64,000 bases of DNA from a virus: positions 184,417 through 248,416 of IMG/VR virus record IMGVR_UViG_3300031420_000003; one strand, 5' to 3'. Positions within the stretch are counted from its first letter, which is position 1; each line of letters starts with the position of its first letter. Under the pieces are notes generated by a model that had not been told where the DNA came from, made no database searches, and saw only the letters and a program-made list of their open reading frames with translations. The translations under genes were made by a program, and so were the position numbers. Below, piece by piece: positions 57,933 to 64,000 of the stretch.

Positions 57933-58151
57933 TCACATGCGGGTGTATTTTAACATTGCTGTTGTGTAATAGTTATAAACTCGGTGAAAGATATCGGCCA
58001 GCAACAAACTTATCAACGCCCCAATACAGGTCGCAATAAACGGTCGCTCTGGATTCAGTAACCGAAAGCCAATCGGAACAGTGATTATCGCAGTCAGGAA
58101 AAAACTGAACACTCCCCAAACGAACATCACTTTCAAAGTACGCACAAACAC
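57933..58151 (-). CDS. Small membrane protein (2 predicted TM helices)
   Basis: Two hydrophobic stretches; GAGGAG SD. Confidence 0.55.
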   Translation of the reverse strand: MFVRTLKVMFVWGVFSFFLTAIITVPIGFRLLNPERPFIATCIGALISLLLADIFHRVYNYYTTAMLKYTRM

Positions 58152-58200
58152 TCCTCGGTCAGTAGAAATAAGATAACCCTGCCCGGAAGCAGGGTCTTAC

Positions 58201-58587
58201 TTAACCGGGCTGAAAAATATCTTTAAGGTGTGCAGTGGTACCGTGCTGCCACGCCACACCCTCACGCACGATAGCTTCCTGAGCGTTGATGACTCGACGC
58301 AAAGAGATAACGTGCTCTGCCGCACCGGCGATAGGATACCGCGGGGGCACAGTTGCTTGACGTACGAATTGGGTAACGTCTTCACAACCGTCTGTTTCAG
58401 ACCAGTCAATGGTGGCCCCTTTCGGGATATCCATTGGTTGGGTATTGTCAGCTTCATCTGGGTGCAAAGCAAAACCCCACTGAATAGAATTCAGGAGTTC
58501 TTTGTCCAGTTCTGACGTTGGCTCAATATTAGCCAAAGAATCCGGATGGGCGCGGATAACGTCCATCGGTCGAACTTTGATGCTCAT
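58201..58587 (-). CDS. Hypothetical protein
   Basis: ATG at 58587 with AAGGAG SD. Confidence 0.6.
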   Translation of the reverse strand: MSIKVRPMDVIRAHPDSLANIEPTSELDKELLNSIQWGFALHPDEADNTQPMDIPKGATIDWSETDGCEDVTQFVRQATVPPRYPIAGAAEHVISLRRVINAQEAIVREGVAWQHGTTAHLKDIFQPG

Positions 58588-58656
58588 GATAAAGGTCTCC
58601 TTGAGAGAAGCTACAGCACACACTTCCCTATAATGAGACCGGGTGCCGTAAAAAAC

Positions 58657-59055
58657 TTAGTGGACGTTCTCGATACGGTTACCCGTAGCGTAGGCCATGG
58701 AATGGATGCAGTCCGTTACGATAGCAAATACTTCATCACAAGGAATCGCACGATCGACCAATGCCTGTGCCATAGAGGCAAAGAACCGCACACCCACTTT
58801 TGGGTTGTTGCGCATGGCACCGGCTTCGGCTGTGGAAATGTTGTACTGTGTGGTGTAAACCGGAACATCAGCACCTTCACGCATGGCCATCTCATCGCTG
58901 AGCTTCAGGCCGGCAATCCAGCTTTGGAACATAGGCAGTGTGCCCATGACTTCCATTACGTCAGATTGAATTTCATCGATGCGTGAGCGTTCGATAAAGT
59001 CGTTTGGTTTGATGCCGTTTTCCAGTAATTCAAAAAAGCTAGATGTGGTTTGCAT
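58657..59055 (-). CDS. Hypothetical protein
   Basis: 132 aa, AGGAG SD. Confidence 0.6.
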   Translation of the reverse strand: MQTTSSFFELLENGIKPNDFIERSRIDEIQSDVMEVMGTLPMFQSWIAGLKLSDEMAMREGADVPVYTTQYNISTAEAGAMRNNPKVGVRFFASMAQALVDRAIPCDEVFAIVTDCIHSMAYATGNRIENVH

Positions 59056-59137
59056 TGAGGTCTCCTATCGCCTTCTATAAGAAATCATGCATGAAGTAAA
59101 AAAAGAAAAAAAAAGAGCCCGAAGGCTCTTTCTCTTA

Positions 59138-60190
59138 TTACACTTTAAAGAATGTCCGTGCACCCATAACCCACTCCTCTTCGGTGTGGACGGCACGGAG
59201 TTCTTTAGGCACAAACAACATTGGCTTGATAAGCACCGTACCCGGTCCAGAGATGTAGGGCACATCCACAAAGAAAGCCGGCAAGCTTCCTTGTAATGCC
59301 GTCGCCTCAAGTTGTGCCGCGCCGTTAACGAAATGCTCCCCATCAACAATGAGAATCCTCCCGCCCTCCAGATACACACCGGGAATAAACTCATTCGTGC
59401 GAATACCAATGTGGTTTGGATTTTGCATGATGCGAATCACATGGCTACGGAAGGACTGGTCTTTCTGTGGATAGAGTTCGCAGAGCTTGCCGAGGGCGAA
59501 GGCCAAGCGGTGTGAGTCGCAGTGCAGGTACTTAGTAAAGCACAGACGTTCTGGATTGAGGTTCCAGCCATTCTGCAGTGTGTGGTTGCTGTGACACACG
59601 GCCGCCATGGTGAACAGTGTAGCGATGGACTGGTACGCATCCTCGGTATACCGCTCAAGGTTGCGGGGCAGGTAGCCGCTATCAGCATTGATGTCGTACA
59701 CGTCTTGCTTGGCATCCATCTCTGCAATGCGGGTAGCGAGGGGTCCGCGTTTGATGCGCAGATTCTCACCGATGTACTCAAGCTGACGAGGCCCGCCTTC
59801 AAACGCATCGGTTGAGCTGCGCCATAACCCATCACCGAAGTGACGCACGAACTCCAATGACCAAACCGTAGCATGGAGTGTCGGGCTGCGGTACTCCAAG
59901 AACTCATTGTCGGTGAACTGGAAGACGGTACGGCCTTTGGCATAACCGGCGAACTGTAAGGAGATAGCATTGGTACGTTTGTACTGCTGCATGTCCTTGA
60001 CGATGGCGTAGGCTTTCCAGAACTCGAGGTTAGCCCGTGGTAATGCATAGCCTGCCATACCGAACTGACGCGGTAACCAGAGGCGAATATTTCTGGCTTG
60101 CTGGAACGTGTAGCCTAATCCCTGTAAGCCGCTCAGTGCATCAATCTTAGGTGCACCACTGCGGGTATTACTGAAGTGACGATTTTTCAT
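59138..60190 (-). CDS. Protein with C-terminal ParB/Srx-like domain
   Basis: 350 aa; PGVYLEGGRILIVDGEHF..GAAQL..LPAFFVD resembles the ParB-N signature. Confidence 0.55.
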   Translation of the reverse strand: MKNRHFSNTRSGAPKIDALSGLQGLGYTFQQARNIRLWLPRQFGMAGYALPRANLEFWKAYAIVKDMQQYKRTNAISLQFAGYAKGRTVFQFTDNEFLEYRSPTLHATVWSLEFVRHFGDGLWRSSTDAFEGGPRQLEYIGENLRIKRGPLATRIAEMDAKQDVYDINADSGYLPRNLERYTEDAYQSIATLFTMAAVCHSNHTLQNGWNLNPERLCFTKYLHCDSHRLAFALGKLCELYPQKDQSFRSHVIRIMQNPNHIGIRTNEFIPGVYLEGGRILIVDGEHFVNGAAQLEATALQGSLPAFFVDVPYISGPGTVLIKPMLFVPKELRAVHTEEEWVMGARTFFKV

Positions 60191-60238
60191 TTTTTACTGG
60201 CCTCTGTGACAAGTCGATTAAAGTGAATACATCTTCGT

Positions 60239-60259
60239 TCACAGAGATGATATCTATCC
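60239..60259 (-). promoter_or_regulatory. Putative early promoter motif
   Basis: GGATAGATATCAT-CTCT-GTGA. Confidence 0.7.
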
Positions 60260-60261
60260 GA

Positions 60262-60301
60262 AATAAAATAGAGTATTCCCCTCTCCAAAACGGAGAGGGG
60301 G
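60262..60301 (-). terminator. Terminator closing the tRNA/ncRNA transcript
   Basis: CCCCTCTCC-GTTTT-GGAGAGGGG hairpin followed by an AT-rich tail. Confidence 0.65.
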
Positions 60302-60306
60302 TACCC

Positions 60307-60670
60307 TGGTGTGGTCGAAGTCTTTCTAACTACCTGGGCAGTATCCGACGGGTCAGGTTCAGACACTTATTAGCAAGCGCGCTAATGTGGATTGTCGGGT
60401 AGGCTGACACAGCAAGCATCCATGGGGGGAAGCGAACTACCTACCCGACAAACGGGGTTTGCTCGAACACCTTTTAAACCACCGCCAGGCGAGTTAAAGG
60501 AATGGTATCCGAGCAATGGGGAACAGACAAAAGCCCGTAATGGCTCTGGGCGTATGTGCAGTAGAAAAACCTATTCGGCTTCTGTCTGTATTGGGTTTTG
60601 CGCTGAGACGCCTGCACGTGTTAGGTTGAATGAAATTTTTCCGGAATGCCATTCACAGTTATCTCAGAGC
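60307..60670 (-). ncRNA. Putative structured ncRNA A (about 360 nt)
   Basis: No credible ORF; several stems, including perfect 12-bp TTGTCGGGTAGG/CCTACCCGACAA, TTGCTCG/CGAGCAA, ACAGACAAAAGCC/GGCTTCTGTCTGT; minus-strand end reads ...CCACACCA. Confidence 0.5.
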
Positions 60671-60675
60671 AAAGG

Positions 60676-60751
60676 TGGCTGGTGATGCAGGAATCGAACC
60701 TGCGACATATGGATTAACAGTCCACTGTTCTACCGACTGAACTAATCACCA
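60676..60751 (-). tRNA. trnN: tRNA-Asn(GTT)
   Basis: Cloverleaf, anticodon loop CT-GTT-AA, TTCGATT T-loop, encoded CCA. Confidence 0.95.
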
Positions 60752-60756
60752 AGAAA

Positions 60757-60833
60757 TGGGTCAACGGTTATGGGATTCGAACCCACCTAGTCTGTTCGCG
60801 AGCACAGTGCATCACAGTTTTGCTTACCGTTGA
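60757..60833 (-). ncRNA. Aberrant tRNA-like element 1
   Basis: 8-bp acceptor TCAACGGT/ACCGTTGA, T-arm GTGGG-TTCGAAT-CCCAT, CCA end; 4-bp anticodon stem with 8-nt loop GCTCGCGA; non-canonical D arm. Confidence 0.6.
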
Positions 60834-60839
60834 AAATAG

Positions 60840-61112
60840 TGGCCGCTTGCCCCCTAACGACTTAACGTTAGACGACTCATCTGGGATTGCTTTGCCCCAG
60901 ACTATACACCCCGCGCGCCCATTGGTTTCGTCAAGAGGGGATGATCCTTTTAACGTGTGTAGGTGACACCCCTCCGAATCCCACGGAGTTCTAAAGGCTG
61001 CACTTAGCGGTCCTCACCATCTACGCCCGCAGGCTACGGTTAACGACTGATGCTTTTATTGGCTGCCATCCCTCAATCGCGTAACGCCGAAGCGTGCTAG
61101 GGGAAGGTGTCA
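60840..61112 (-). ncRNA. Putative structured ncRNA B (about 270 nt)
   Basis: Terminal pairing CCCCTAGC/GTTAGGGG, internal hairpins ACGC-TTCG-GCGT, CTCCG/CGGAG, TCTGGG/CCCAGA; ends GCGGCCA. Confidence 0.5.
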
Positions 61113-61202
61113 TTGTAGGGTGAACGCTCGGTATCTAAACCAGTTAACCAAATGGGGGACACTCTGCAGGAGGAGACCCATTCAGATTACACGCTCATTG
61201 AT

Positions 61203-61292
61203 TGGCGGAGAATGTTGGATTCGAACCAACGGTACCCTTACGGATACACTCCCTTAGCAGGGGAGCGACTTAAGCCACTCATCCAATTCTCC
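61203..61292 (-). tRNA. trnS: tRNA-Ser(GCT)
   Basis: Cloverleaf with long variable arm, CT-GCT-AA loop, CCA. Confidence 0.95.
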
Positions 61293-61297
61293 AGATA

Positions 61298-61373
61298 TGG
61301 CAGTGCTGATGGGATTTGAACCCACGATTTCCTACGTGACAGGCAGGCGTCTTAACCGCTCGACTACAGCACT
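61298..61373 (-). tRNA. trnD: tRNA-Asp(GTC)
   Basis: Cloverleaf, CT-GTC-AC loop, CCA. Confidence 0.95.
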
Positions 61374-61379
61374 ACTGTT

Positions 61380-61455
61380 TGGCAGGGAAGAGAGGACTCG
61401 AACCTCCAACACCCGGTTTTGGAGACCGGTGCTCTACCAATTGAACTACTTCCCC
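61380..61455 (-). tRNA. trnW: tRNA-Trp(CCA)
   Basis: Cloverleaf, CT-CCA-AA loop, CCA. Confidence 0.95.
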
Positions 61456-61473
61456 AGAATTGCGCATCGCTTG

Positions 61474-61563
61474 CTTGGTGGGGTCAACCACCTCACTAGT
61501 ACACTCCCCGCGAAGAAAGGAATCGCGTAACCGCTAGTAGTGGCGACTAACCACCCCGCAAGG
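61474..61563 (-). ncRNA. Putative small rod-like ncRNA C (about 90 nt)
   Basis: Nested pairing CTTG.GTGGGG/CCCCGCAAG, ACTAG/CTAGT, CGCGA/TCGCG in the tRNA spacer. Confidence 0.4.
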
Positions 61564-61578
61564 TTACGTTCTTGTGTT

Positions 61579-61654
61579 TGGTATTCCCGACGAGATTTGA
61601 ACTCGTGTACCGTCAGTGAAAGTGACGTATCCTAACCAACTAGATGACGGGAAT
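61579..61654 (-). tRNA. trnE: tRNA-Glu(TTC)
   Basis: Cloverleaf, CT-TTC-AC loop, CCA. Confidence 0.93.
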
Positions 61655-61657
61655 ATT

Positions 61658-61732
61658 TGGTACACCCACGGGGATTTGAACCCCGGTTAACTGCTCGAAA
61701 GGCAGCGGTCCTAACCGCTAGACGATGGGTGT
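61658..61732 (-). tRNA. trnE: tRNA-Glu(TTC), second divergent copy
   Basis: Cloverleaf, CT-TTC-GA loop, CCA. Confidence 0.88.
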
Positions 61733-61737
61733 ATAAC

Positions 61738-61823
61738 TGGTGGCACGGGTTGGATTTGAACCAACGAAGCCCGAAGGCGGCAGATTTACAGTCTGCTCTC
61801 GTTAACCGCTTGAGTACCTTGCC
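61738..61823 (-). tRNA. trnY: tRNA-Tyr(GTA)
   Basis: Cloverleaf with variable arm, CT-GTA-AA loop, CCA. Confidence 0.95.
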
Positions 61824-61846
61824 AGAATTCTTTATACATAACAAGA

Positions 61847-61929
61847 GGGTTGTGTTGTGGAATTGAACCACGAAGTGCTTACGTCCGTTTGCCTGCCGTA
61901 AACCCAACTCACGCCAACGTGACACAACC
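61847..61929 (-). ncRNA. Aberrant tRNA-like element 2
   Basis: 8-bp acceptor GGTTGTGT/ACACAACC, T-arm GTGG-TTCAATT-CCAC, hairpin CACG-TTGG-CGTG, 7-bp central stem with 13-nt loop; no encoded CCA. Confidence 0.55.
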
Positions 61930-62028
61930 ATTGCACATATGTACTGAGATAACTTGTTATTTTTGCAACAGTTTATCTAAGCGCACATGTCTTGTACATA
62001 ATACAGTGTAAACCTGTAATTACATTTT

Positions 62029-62104
62029 TGGAGCAGACAGTCAGGTTCGAACTGACGACCCTCTGATTGGAAATCAGATGCTCTACCAACTGAGCTATGC
62101 CTGC
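62029..62104 (-). tRNA. trnG: tRNA-Gly(TCC)
   Basis: Cloverleaf, TT-TCC-AA loop, U73, CCA. Confidence 0.93.
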
Positions 62105-62124
62105 AACATATATACTAACTAAAG

Positions 62125-62706
62125 GTTAAACGGGTGTCGATGGACTTCTTCTTCTGAGCCTGTCCGCGGACAGGTCTTAGCGCCTCCAAGCACCGACCCC
62201 TATTACTTTCAATTCGTGACGTACCGGCCGTTTGAGGTACCGCGCCAACTGCAGCACACAGCTGCTCTTTCGCATCTGGGAACTCAATCCCATCAGTTAT
62301 TTTCAAATTGTGGGTGAAGGTTGCCTATGTCAGCGAGTCAGCTTAATGGGCTGGTGCTTGACCTTCTTCCTTCACGACGTTCGCCGCAGTTGAGGGCTTG
62401 CGCCCTGAAACAGGTTTATGGCGTACAGTCCCACAGCCTGATAACCAATAAGTATCGAGCCTCCAGAAGCGCATGTTGCTAATGACATTCCGAAGAAGGC
62501 CAAGAGCATGATGCACAAAGGCTCTAATCATTTTACGCTCATCGAATAAGTTGTGGACGGACGGGACACCTACCGGATTAGCAGTAGTGCTTTGTGTGTC
62601 CCGGCTGCGCAAGGCTTAAGGGTCTGCTTGCGGTCTTAGCATGCGATAACCGTTATCTCGCTTCCGTCGCGATGGGGATATCAGCCCGCACCGCTGAGTT
62701 GTCAGA
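62125..62706. ncRNA. Putative large structured ncRNA D (about 580 nt)
   Basis: No credible ORF; dense hairpins (CCTGTCC/GGACAGG, GTACC/GGTAC, GCAGC/GCTGC, AGGGC/GCCCT, CGGGACAC/GTGTCCCG, GAGCCT/AGGCTC, TGTGGG/CCCACA). Confidence 0.45.
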
Positions 62707-62709
62707 TAA

Positions 62710-63540
62710 TTACTTCGCTGTGCCGAGGATACGAGACTGATTCTTCAGTAGAATCGTCGACACGGCTTCAAGCAGATCGTCGCTACTGTTGTTGTTGGCA
62801 ACAACAAGCGTGGTCGTACAAGGAACATCGACACTGCCACCGAAGAATGCGCCGTTAACTTTCGCAGACTCTTTGGTGTACACGGATTGACCGTTAGGCA
62901 GTTTGTCGTTAACGTTCCACGTTGACATATCAATCATCTGCAAGCCAGAACCGTCCTGATTAACCGCATCAAGGAACTTGTTGTTCTTGCCCGGAGCCGA
63001 TACCCACAAGAAGGCGTCGTATTCACCGGTAGCCATTTTGGCCAGTGAACGGATACCGCCTTTTGCGTAGGTCTCAGCCTTACCATATTCTTTCACCAGT
63101 TGTTGCAGATACTGCCAGCTGGCATACGAGCCGCTATCAGGTTCGCCAACCGCAATCTTCGCGCCGTTGGTGAGGTCTTCTGCTTTACTGATTTTGCCGT
63201 CTTTCTTCACGGCTACCCAGACGCACTCTTTGGCCAACTGGCCAACGATGTCAACGTTCTGCGCTTCGTTCGGGTGCTTGTTGCGCCAGAACTGGAATGC
63301 ATCTGCCTGCGTGAAGCCAACCTGTGCTTCATTCGCCGCGACTTTGTCGAGGTTATCCAGCGACCCTTTGGACGGGACGACCTGCGACTTGTTACCGAAC
63401 TCGGCCAGAGCACCGGCTAAGTTCACCCCGTAAACGGAGTTGTAGGTTAAACCCTGCTGTCCTGTGGTGATGACCACATTCTCGCCTGCCAGTGCCGAAA
63501 AGCTGAAAAGTGCCAATACTCCAATGAGTAACTTTCTCAT
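62710..63540 (-). CDS. TAXI-family TRAP transporter solute-binding protein
   Basis: Signal peptide (..FSALA); TG...TY, SKGSLDNL, VGFTQAD, KIAVGEPDSGS motifs. Confidence 0.85.
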   Translation of the reverse strand: MRKLLIGVLALFSFSALAGENVVITTGQQGLTYNSVYGVNLAGALAEFGNKSQVVPSKGSLDNLDKVAANEAQVGFTQADAFQFWRNKHPNEAQNVDIVGQLAKECVWVAVKKDGKISKAEDLTNGAKIAVGEPDSGSYASWQYLQQLVKEYGKAETYAKGGIRSLAKMATGEYDAFLWVSAPGKNNKFLDAVNQDGSGLQMIDMSTWNVNDKLPNGQSVYTKESAKVNGAFFGGSVDVPCTTTLVVANNNSSDDLLEAVSTILLKNQSRILGTAK

Positions 63541-63601
63541 GATTGTTGTTAACCTTGTGTTAAGAAAGAAAGCGTGCTAAGGGGAACGTCCCTACCACGT
63601 A

Positions 63602-63772
63602 TCAGGTGCTCTTCCGTTTAGGAATGAGTCGCTTGATGACAGGCCAAGCCAGAACGACGACAAAGCCGATAACGAGAACGATACCGAACAGTGTCATGAT
63701 TCGGCCAACGAAGTGACCGAGCAGCATGAAGAACAATGCCGCCGCGATGTACAACTTGGTCTTCAGTTTCAT
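63602..63772 (-). CDS. Small membrane protein
   Basis: 56 aa MKLKTKLYIAAALFF..., two hydrophobic segments and a basic tail. Confidence 0.55.
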   Translation of the reverse strand: MKLKTKLYIAAALFFMLLGHFVGRIMTLFGIVLVIGFVVVLAWPVIKRLIPKRKST

Positions 63773-63794
63773 TCGAGTCTCGAAAGAATCAAAA

Positions 63795-63869
63795 TGGAGG
63801 AGCAGGGCGGAATTGAACCGCCGTAAAGTGATTTGCAATCACTCGCCTAAGCCACTCGGCCACTGCTCC
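63795..63869 (-). tRNA. trnC: tRNA-Cys(GCA)
   Basis: Cloverleaf, TT-GCA-AA loop, U73, CCA. Confidence 0.93.
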
Positions 63870-64000
63870 AGTGTGGTGGGCCGAAGCCCACCGTTATCTA
63901 GCCTGCACAAAATGACTCATGGACAACGCCCGCCGGTAAGTCGGTACGACCGATACAGGTAACGCTCAGGCGGATGCCTTCTTCGCAGCTACCATCACAG

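Follow-up and report, generated by a model that had tools for sequence, protein, structure and literature searches.

We analysed the non-coding stretch behind a tRNA-Asn gene in a 64,000-nucleotide (nt) piece of viral DNA, referred to here as the window, which is the right end (positions 184,417 to 248,416) of a 248,416-base-pair (bp) virus record with direct terminal repeats (IMG/VR record IMGVR_UViG_3300031420_000003). Judged by its sequence, the source is a Wellingtonvirus-like jumbo phage of Erwinia type. Among named phages, the Erwinia amylovora jumbo phages Wellington and Kwan of the genus Wellingtonvirus come closest, with ~86-88% identity across the stretch, and pEa_SNUABM_11 matches it in part (~84% identity). 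The stretch begins directly 3' of the tRNA-Asn CCA, on the same (minus) strand, and sits between tRNA-Asn and the gene of a 350-amino-acid (aa) protein (59138-60190, minus). It is best read as a beads-on-a-string array of predicted stem-closed hairpins of 58-77 nt, each followed by an N-CC(A/C) tail, plus two small hairpins. With moderate confidence, we interpret it as the 3' external trailer of a phage tRNA operon, from which the hairpins would be cut out by tRNA-processing enzymes.

To describe the modules, we used a MAFFT alignment of the trailers of the window, Wellington, Kwan, a Kwan-like IMG/VR contig and pEa_SNUABM_11 (n = 5), together with a local fold in which the pair span was limited to 100 nt. 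Four large hairpins follow one another along the minus strand. D1 (60597-60673, 77 nt) has an interrupted closing helix of 5 + 7 bp (UUUGC/GCAAA plus CUGAGAU/GUCUCAG), a conserved apex GAAUGGCAUUCCGGAAAAAUUUCAUUC (60627-60654) and the tail ACCC (60593-60596); 41 consecutive apical nt were invariant in all five Wellingtonvirus-type sequences. D2 (60523-60589, 67 nt) has a 13-bp closing helix around the conserved interior GAAUAGGUUUUUCUA...UACGCCCAGAGCCAUUAC, with long invariant runs in 5/5 sequences, and its tail UCCC (60519-60522) reads ACCA in Wellington and Kwan and UCCA in pEa_SNUABM_11. V2 (60459-60516, 58 nt, 13-bp closing helix) is a lineage-specific module with the tail ACCC (60455-60458). 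D3 (60392-60451, 60 nt) encloses a 36-nt interior in a perfect 12-bp helix and is followed by UCCA (60388-60391), which is invariant in 5/5. The linkers after the large hairpins measure 5-7 nt. Two small hairpins lie further downstream. The first, AUUAGC/GCUAAU (60369-60386, 18 nt, 6 bp), has a stem that is invariant in 5/5 and a loop of 6 nt in four of the five sequences and of 4 nt in pEa_SNUABM_11. The second, AGUGUCUGA/UCGGAUACU (60340-60367, 28 nt, 9 bp), carries a 10-nt loop with a conserved UGACCCG; its stem (alignment columns 402-410 with 422-430) includes one pair with both partners changed, five with a single partner changed, and one that is disrupted in one sequence. A repeat search of the phage genome found none of the modules repeated elsewhere. 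An earlier note on this DNA, made from the letters alone, had listed most of these stems, and all that it listed were recovered: ATTAGC/GCTAAT (in the sequence and in the local folds), the perfect 12-bp TTGTCGGGTAGG/CCTACCCGACAA helix of D3, TTGCTCG.../...CGAGCAA at 60459-60516 enclosing CCTTTTAA/TTAAAGG, the 13-bp ACAGACAAAAGCC/GGCTTCTGTCTGT helix of D2, whose single mismatch is a G-U pair on the minus strand, and CTGAGA/TCTCAG within D1.

We then folded both strands of 60280-60680 and compared them with shuffled sequences. The minus-strand RNA reached -140.8 kcal/mol (z = -4.98) and none of 100 shuffles folded as well, while the plus strand gave z = -1.42, with 9/100 shuffles folding as well. 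In the minus-strand local fold, 16 of 127 pairs were G-U, which become A-C mismatches on the opposite strand. The structure thus belongs to the minus strand, the same as the tRNAs, and the G-U pairs, like the strand asymmetry of the folds, speak for an element of RNA, not DNA. This bears on the alternative of a DNA-level or coding element, that is, a signal for packaging or replication, a promoter, a gene for a small protein, or what is left of a gene located in relatives between the trailer and the 350-aa gene. Such an element would suit a region ~3.7 kilobases (kb) away from the end of a terminally repeated genome, a 52-aa open reading frame (ORF; 60494-60652, minus), which is the only sizeable minus-strand ORF in the trailer, and the DNA palindrome TTCCGGAA in the D1 apex. 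We consider it extremely improbable, because the folding points to RNA, the D1 motif is unique in the genome, and an additional 64-nt hairpin, which Wellington and Kwan carry between D1 and D2, lies inside the ORF and shifts its frame, so that the stretch is not coding. For a gene remnant, tblastn with products from four relatives gave a best E of 0.075 in 58000-62800, with no match inside the trailer and none genome-wide at 1e-3.

The tails were assessed next. In the window, all four large hairpins (4/4) are followed by an NCC tail, and the real tRNAs of the array show, in the same fold, N-CCA and then a spacer of 3-6 nt. We counted tails in 10 non-redundant phage trailers, taking top-level hairpins of 45-100 nt with at least 15 pairs (n = 43). 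The results showed CC at +1/+2 or +2/+3 past the closing helix behind 29 of the 43 hairpins, compared with 285/2000 (14%) in dinucleotide shuffles and at most 9 in any of 60 shuffle sets. A CCA tail was present behind 17/43 compared with 89/2000 (4.5%) in shuffles, and at most 4 in any of the 60 sets. When the hairpins were grouped by eye into 15 module families, 11 families had NCC (binomial P = 3.8e-7 at the shuffled rate). Hairpins lacking the tail were for the most part either the final large ones in Seoulvirus and Erskinevirus trailers or ones in the leader of the next gene. NCCA as a specific tail of D2 was rejected, since it is not kept in SPN3US or pEa_SNUABM_29 and only NCC is general. 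The earlier note had also proposed a CCA-like end for the RNA. A CCA is indeed present at 60307-60309, in a weakly structured 3' segment (60299-60339, minus) that ends in the invariant CCAGGGUACCC (60299-60309), and it is invariant in 5/5; however, its neighbours (CCAGGGTACCC) are equally invariant in the five aligned relatives, and there is no mark of an RNA end there. The relevant CCA-like feature is the N-CC(A/C) behind each large hairpin.

Comparison of the five aligned sequences revealed that the hairpins turn over as separate units. D1, D2, D3 and both small hairpins are common to all five. Besides the additional 64-nt hairpin of Wellington and Kwan, the V2 position in these two phages holds an unrelated sequence that also forms a hairpin, and in pEa_SNUABM_11 V2 is missing and a further tRNA-like segment separates D1 from tRNA-Asn. 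The stems are conserved in these relatives, so the refuting condition set in the earlier note, a lack of such conservation, does not hold. The consensus fold contains 141 pairs, of which 13 changed on both sides and stayed paired. MAFFT misaligned the 12-bp D3 helix of pEa_SNUABM_11; folded alone, this D3 retains a 13-bp helix. Relative to the window, three positions have changed in its 5' arm and four in its 3' arm; both partners were exchanged in three of these pairs, and one pair became U-G. The Wellington D3 helix is likewise kept, with two G-U pairs.

These results confirm the part of the earlier note that saw a non-coding, highly structured RNA with compensatory stem changes, here assigned to the tRNA strand, and do not support its description of one multi-domain RNA, as the domains act as independent modules that are inserted, swapped or missing among relatives. 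A single folded molecule of ~370 nt, in the manner of ROOL or GOLLD, is therefore unlikely. It would account for RNA-library contigs that span the entire stretch, for a weak long-range closure in the consensus fold (ACCC(U) with (A)GGGU, around D2-D5), and for mutually complementary runs, read by eye, in the loops at genus level. However, the closure comprises 4-5 bp, is never informatively variable and is broken in pEa_SNUABM_11, and the loop complementarities are, by eye, not kept in SPN3US or pEa_SNUABM_29. Close relatives gain, replace or lack modules with the others unaffected, Machinavirus trailers have D1 without D2, V2 and D3, and no Rfam family, ROOL and GOLLD included, matched at E up to 10. 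A specific D1-D2 loop-loop pairing within the genus (GGAAAAAUU/GGUUUUUCU, AAUGGC/GCCAUU and GUGCAG/CUGCAC) was also considered; it is not kept in the Seoulvirus versions, and we make no claim for it.

To follow D1 beyond the genus, we searched with a 45-nt D1-apex query, which matched 25/28 nt in 13 records that represent nine distinct Machinavirus phages, some of them entered with a GenBank and a RefSeq accession. In the Machinavirus loci examined, the match starts 23 nt behind tRNA-Asn. A covariance model, R1, was built from five Machinavirus D1 copies and found D1 in 13/13 related loci searched, on the tRNA strand, with 23.8-103 bits; these loci were eight of Machinavirus, Asesino of Erskinevirus, and SPAsTU, pEa_SNUABM_29, SPN3US and Proteus phage 7 of Seoulvirus. 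D1 follows the last tRNA, and in SPN3US and pEa_SNUABM_29 it follows a weak tRNA-like element. In the window's group, R1 matched the apex only (60627-60654, model positions 23-50; 25 bits, E 0.0008), and this match is unique in the whole 248-kb genome. When 12 distinct sequences from three other genera were aligned by fitting to the model, pairing in the 13-bp closing helix of D1 held in 98.7% of cells and 7/13 pairs had changed on both sides, values that 0/500 column shuffles reached; when the helix partner was slid by 1-3 columns, pairing fell to 39-58%. Between these genera, the neighbouring 350-aa protein shows ~33% identity over 39% of its length, compared with 89% identity in the D1 apex, which argues for selection on the apex sequence. 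D1 is thus retained across four genera.

D2 also has homologous hairpins, in pEa_SNUABM_29, SPN3US and Proteus phage 7, where the arm sequences differ and interior motifs such as GGGUUUUU and AGAGCC are kept; this comparison rests on single folds and on reading of the rows, and MAFFT set the 3' arm of pEa_SNUABM_29 one column off. The Machinavirus trailers are shorter, with D1 followed by one to three hairpins, the last of which has a U-run. Exact-motif scans of IMG/VR returned the same two contigs each time, one of them Kwan-like, and a scan of metagenomes returned three contigs. One metagenome contig (L013) was 99.6% identical to the window over 565 nt, the match of another (L012) was the same as that of L004, and the third (L011) shared 22 nt only. 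L011, a 3.6-kb contig with an exact 22-nt D1-apex match at 1139-1160, was dropped as a probable chance match, as it has no tRNA and no phage match; by our estimate, a 21-letter pattern would yield about one such match by chance in a collection of that size.

The conservation of loops bears on a further alternative, a passive trailer, in which the hairpins would lack any role of their own and would only guard the 3' end of the tRNA transcript, aid the release of tRNA-Asn or stop transcription, with the pieces then degraded. The position directly behind the last tRNA and ahead of a terminator-like hairpin suits such a role. Nevertheless, stability or termination needs stems only, yet the loops are kept (the 41 nt of D1 and the runs of D2 in 5/5 sequences, and 25/28 nt across genera), four or five large hairpins in series with NCC tails exceed the needs of a 3' end, and D1 persists across four genera. 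We judge the passive trailer rather unlikely.

Decayed tRNA genes, left with an acceptor stem and CCA, were weighed as a further origin of the hairpins. Their tRNA size, their NCC(A) tails and their place in a tRNA array with clear turnover are what such fossils would show, and degenerate tRNA-like elements occur near by (60762-60831, 20.6 bits; the extra pEa_SNUABM_11 segment before D1). However, neither the tRNA model at E up to 10 nor ARAGORN recognised a tRNA within 60278-60675, and most closing helices are 12-18 continuous bp (that of D1 in the window is interrupted, 5 + 7 bp) compared with 7 bp in an acceptor stem. Covarying stems and cross-genus loop conservation are signatures of selection, not decay, and no intermediates linking a module to a specific tRNA were present among the 16 trailers compared. 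This origin therefore appears very unlikely. The extra segment of pEa_SNUABM_11 itself (2791-2888 of its locus, minus) is ~100 nt long, with a T-arm-like GGTTCGAATCC, a D-arm-like stretch and the end CGCCACCA, and by its sequence it looks like a rearranged or decayed tRNA.

We next compared four sequencing runs with 59800-62200; three are recorded as RNA (X15, X18 and X19) and one is probably DNA (X16). In X15, a seed metatranscriptome (record 1), a 560-nt contig runs from 60760 to 60256, with ~60 extra letters at the site of the additional Wellington/Kwan hairpin. In X19, from another study (record 22), a 661-nt contig runs from 60755 to 60314 and also covers part of the spacer upstream of tRNA-Asn (60906-60967), across a joint with other letters. 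The trailer, in a Kwan-like form, is thus present as a whole together with tRNA-Asn in two metatranscriptome studies. X18, from the study of X15, yielded two short pieces, on D1 and on tRNA-Asn. None of the three RNA runs had a piece on 59800-60204, the side of the 350-aa gene, and a contig of X16 (60114-60457) extends from the trailer into this gene. Of the two long RNA contigs, one ends at 60256 and the other at ~60296-60314. A further run with a small share (X20) and the uncovered parts of the tRNA array were left out of the evidence. These observations fit an abundant, stable RNA that ends near the terminator-like hairpin (60278-60300).

Taken together, the data suggest the following course. 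The trailer would be transcribed on the minus strand together with tRNA-Asn, and each large hairpin would present a long closing helix, a single-stranded N-CC(A/C) and a short A/U-containing linker. The tRNA-maturation enzymes of the host would split this string into separate small hairpin RNAs, with RNase P cutting at the 5' base of each helix and RNase E and 3' exonucleases cutting just past CC(A). The products may be stable and may act in trans, and the sequence-conserved loops would do the work, for example by protein or RNA binding or by mimicry of the tRNA acceptor end. Release by tRNA-maturation enzymes is the likeliest route, because a helix followed by RCCA is a minimal bacterial RNase P substrate, and the conservation of the hairpin loops argues for specific partners. 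The modules have the helix and leader of such substrates, with closing helices of 12-13 bp (D2, V2, D3) or 5 + 7 bp (D1) and linkers of 5-7 nt. Standing in line with CCA-encoding tRNAs, the string is laid out as would be expected if the same enzymes were to free every hairpin. E. coli RNase P is reported to act on hairpin substrates without a T-loop, namely 4.5S RNA, phi80 M3 RNA, P4 CI RNA and P1/P7 C4 RNA (PMC5499578, PMC11143913), cleavage of minimal substrates by RNase P can depend on a 3' RCCA motif (PMC12710915), and E. coli RNase E has been reported to cut 1-3 nt past an encoded CCA (PMC2190699). No CCA-adding enzyme was found in the phage genome.

Several observations weigh against this interpretation. 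The homologous modules of the 10 phages are not independent of one another, and the module families behind the tail statistics were grouped by eye. In the window, an exact CCA follows one of the four large hairpins (D3), the others having CCC and relatives also CCU, and the NCC tail is missing from 14 of the 43 hairpins counted, among them the big hairpin at the end of the Seoulvirus trailers. The hairpins start with U-rich strands, unlike tRNAs, which usually start with G. The D1 covariation alignment was fitted to model R1, and one reverse-strand row was left in it. Finally, the RNA libraries provide contigs only, which span the hairpin junctions and from which ends, strand and level are not readable, and DNA carry-over is possible.

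Among known systems, the closest in layout is phage T4, in which the small RNAs RNAC and RNAD (species 1 and 2 RNAs) lie directly behind the last tRNA on the same strand, in the order tRNA-Arg, rnaD (119 nt) and rnaC (139 nt) with gaps of 1 and 6 nt. Both show tRNA-like ends (T4 locus 1409-1672, minus): annotated rnaD stops at ACC and is followed in the genome by A, which completes an encoded CCA, and rnaC has a T-arm-like GGGUUCGAAUCCC near its 3' end. The trailer shows no similarity to rnaC or rnaD in sequence or by the model: blastn-short gave a single 11-nt match (E 0.49), and R1 run on the T4 locus with filters off gave at best 11.6 bits (E 0.097). The T4 RNAs are also two in number with branched folds, whereas the trailer strings together four to five simple long hairpins whose modules turn over between relatives. 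PMC3014915 and PMC9697503 still describe the roles of RNAC and RNAD as unexplained. The hairpin-type RNase P substrates (pre-4.5S, phi80 M3, P4 CI and P1/P7 C4 RNAs), several of them phage-borne, share with the trailer a long helix, a single-stranded 5' leader and the absence of a T-loop, and carry an RCCA-type 3' tail where the trailer units have N-CC(A/C) (PMC5499578, PMC11143913). By analogy, the trailer units would differ from these single RNAs with known jobs (signal recognition particle RNA, immunity, antisense repressors) in being arrayed behind tRNAs and in having a predicted cleavage. 4.5S RNA ends in ACCC, the tail also found behind D1 and V2.

A functional trailer is known from the E. 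coli glyW-cysT-leuZ operon, where 3'ETS-leuZ, a small RNA (sRNA) sponge derived from the trailer past the last tRNA, is freed by tRNA processing. 3'ETS-leuZ is short and Hfq-dependent and pairs with known sRNAs; the phage trailer is ~seven times longer, and no complementarity of it to any partner was found, although no systematic search was made. ROOL and GOLLD are structured ncRNAs that often lie beside phage tRNA genes, each with a single ornate fold in contrast to the modular hairpin string described here. ROOL, GOLLD and other Rfam families (4227) gave no match in 60100-64000 at E up to 10 or in six relatives at E up to 1. Rfam searches of the window at gathering threshold and at E up to 10, and of the six relatives at E up to 1, returned only tRNAs and chance matches. 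A literature search, which left supplements outside, found no paper on ncRNAs of SPN3US-like phages. We file the family as new within a known kind, the small RNAs of phage tRNA operons and hairpin-type RNase P substrates.

Two other functions were considered and rejected. A CsrA sponge was dropped because the five GGA counted by eye in ~400 nt are about the chance number. A Y RNA was dropped because the only YrlA match, at 18.5 bits, falls short of the threshold of 69 and covers tRNA-Asn and the upstream tRNA-like element, outside the trailer; the phage genome has no Ro60 (TROVE) domain, and the weak Y-RNA-like matches are hence not meaningful.

At its 5' side, the trailer adjoins an array of nine minus-strand tRNA genes (60676-63869; ARAGORN and Rfam). 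The last of these is tRNA-Asn (GTT), at 60676-60751 (minus), with an encoded CCA, called by ARAGORN and scored at 73.5 bits by the Rfam tRNA model. A tRNA-like element lies between tRNA-Ser and tRNA-Asn (60757-60833, minus); the tRNA model gave it 20.6 bits (E 0.75) over 60762-60831, and in the local fold its closing helix of 8 bp leads into CCCAUUU. Upstream of tRNA-Asn, the spacer (60841-61197, minus) likewise resolves into stem-closed modules: module 61121-61197 is followed by CCCUACA, and module 60841-60911 ends in ...GCGGCC followed by A. The hairpin-plus-CC layout thus extends beyond the trailer.

At its 3' side, the trailer runs up to a terminator-like hairpin (60278-60300, minus), a G+C-rich 9-bp stem CCCCUCUCC/GGAGAGGGG in the folds. 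The earlier note had placed the RNA between tRNA-Asn and the terminator; the placement between tRNA-Asn and this hairpin holds, but the hairpin has no U-tract directly behind its stem, a U-rich run beginning 9 nt later, and it was not called by a simple terminator scan. In pEa_SNUABM_11, the hairpin is retained as CCCUUCUCC/GGAGAAGGG, with one C-G to U-A exchange (rows read by eye). A scan of the trailer for sigma-70 promoters and terminators gave none above shuffled expectation, and one listed 'terminator' was rejected as merely the inner part of D2. Directly behind the terminator-like hairpin, and outside the RNA, lies a 20-nt motif (60252-60271, minus) with three near-copies outside the window (20 nt at 95%, 19 nt at 95% and 21 nt at 90%). 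This motif probably serves the 350-aa gene as its promoter, in which case the trailer would not be the leader of that gene. The 350-aa protein has no Pfam family. Its leader (60201-60247, minus) forms a 47-nt hairpin with a 9-bp stem and a probable ribosome-binding GAGG in the 3' arm, a few bases ahead of the ATG, and may be a translational control element.

In several deposited genomes, small 'hypothetical protein' genes overlie the trailer hairpins. These include SPN3US_0003, on the opposite strand (SPN3US locus 1416-1652), Huxley gp20, whose long start (locus 728 onward) overlaps trailer hairpins while relatives start ~220 nt later, and Asesino gp20 and gp21 (locus 2074-2478). These genes are probably mis-annotations, and the annotation can be corrected accordingly.

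As to what the hairpins might do, we favour, as a weak guess, that they mimic the acceptor end of tRNA and so act as decoy or bait. In its boldest form, SPN3US-like nucleus-forming jumbo phages would encode an undescribed class of tRNA-sized hairpin RNAs with N-CCA ends, which are released by host RNase P and RNase E and act in trans as acceptor-end mimics; we consider this quite unlikely as a whole. Such RNAs might serve as decoys that divert tRNA-3'-end-attacking host defences or toxins, or as baits for tRNA-handling factors, and through its conserved loops each module would have a partner of its own. Today, phage tRNA clusters are viewed as tools against tRNA-depleting host defences, and the small RNAs that accompany them, such as T4 RNAC and RNAD, have been unexplained for fifty years. 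The trailer offers a comparative handle on such RNAs in the genetically studied relatives of SPN3US, through its defined modules, its predicted ends and one apical motif that is strongly selected. Should the hairpins be released with CCA ends, they would offer ready-made substrates for studying how RNase P handles hairpins other than tRNAs, and a simple natural example of tRNA-end mimicry by a phage.

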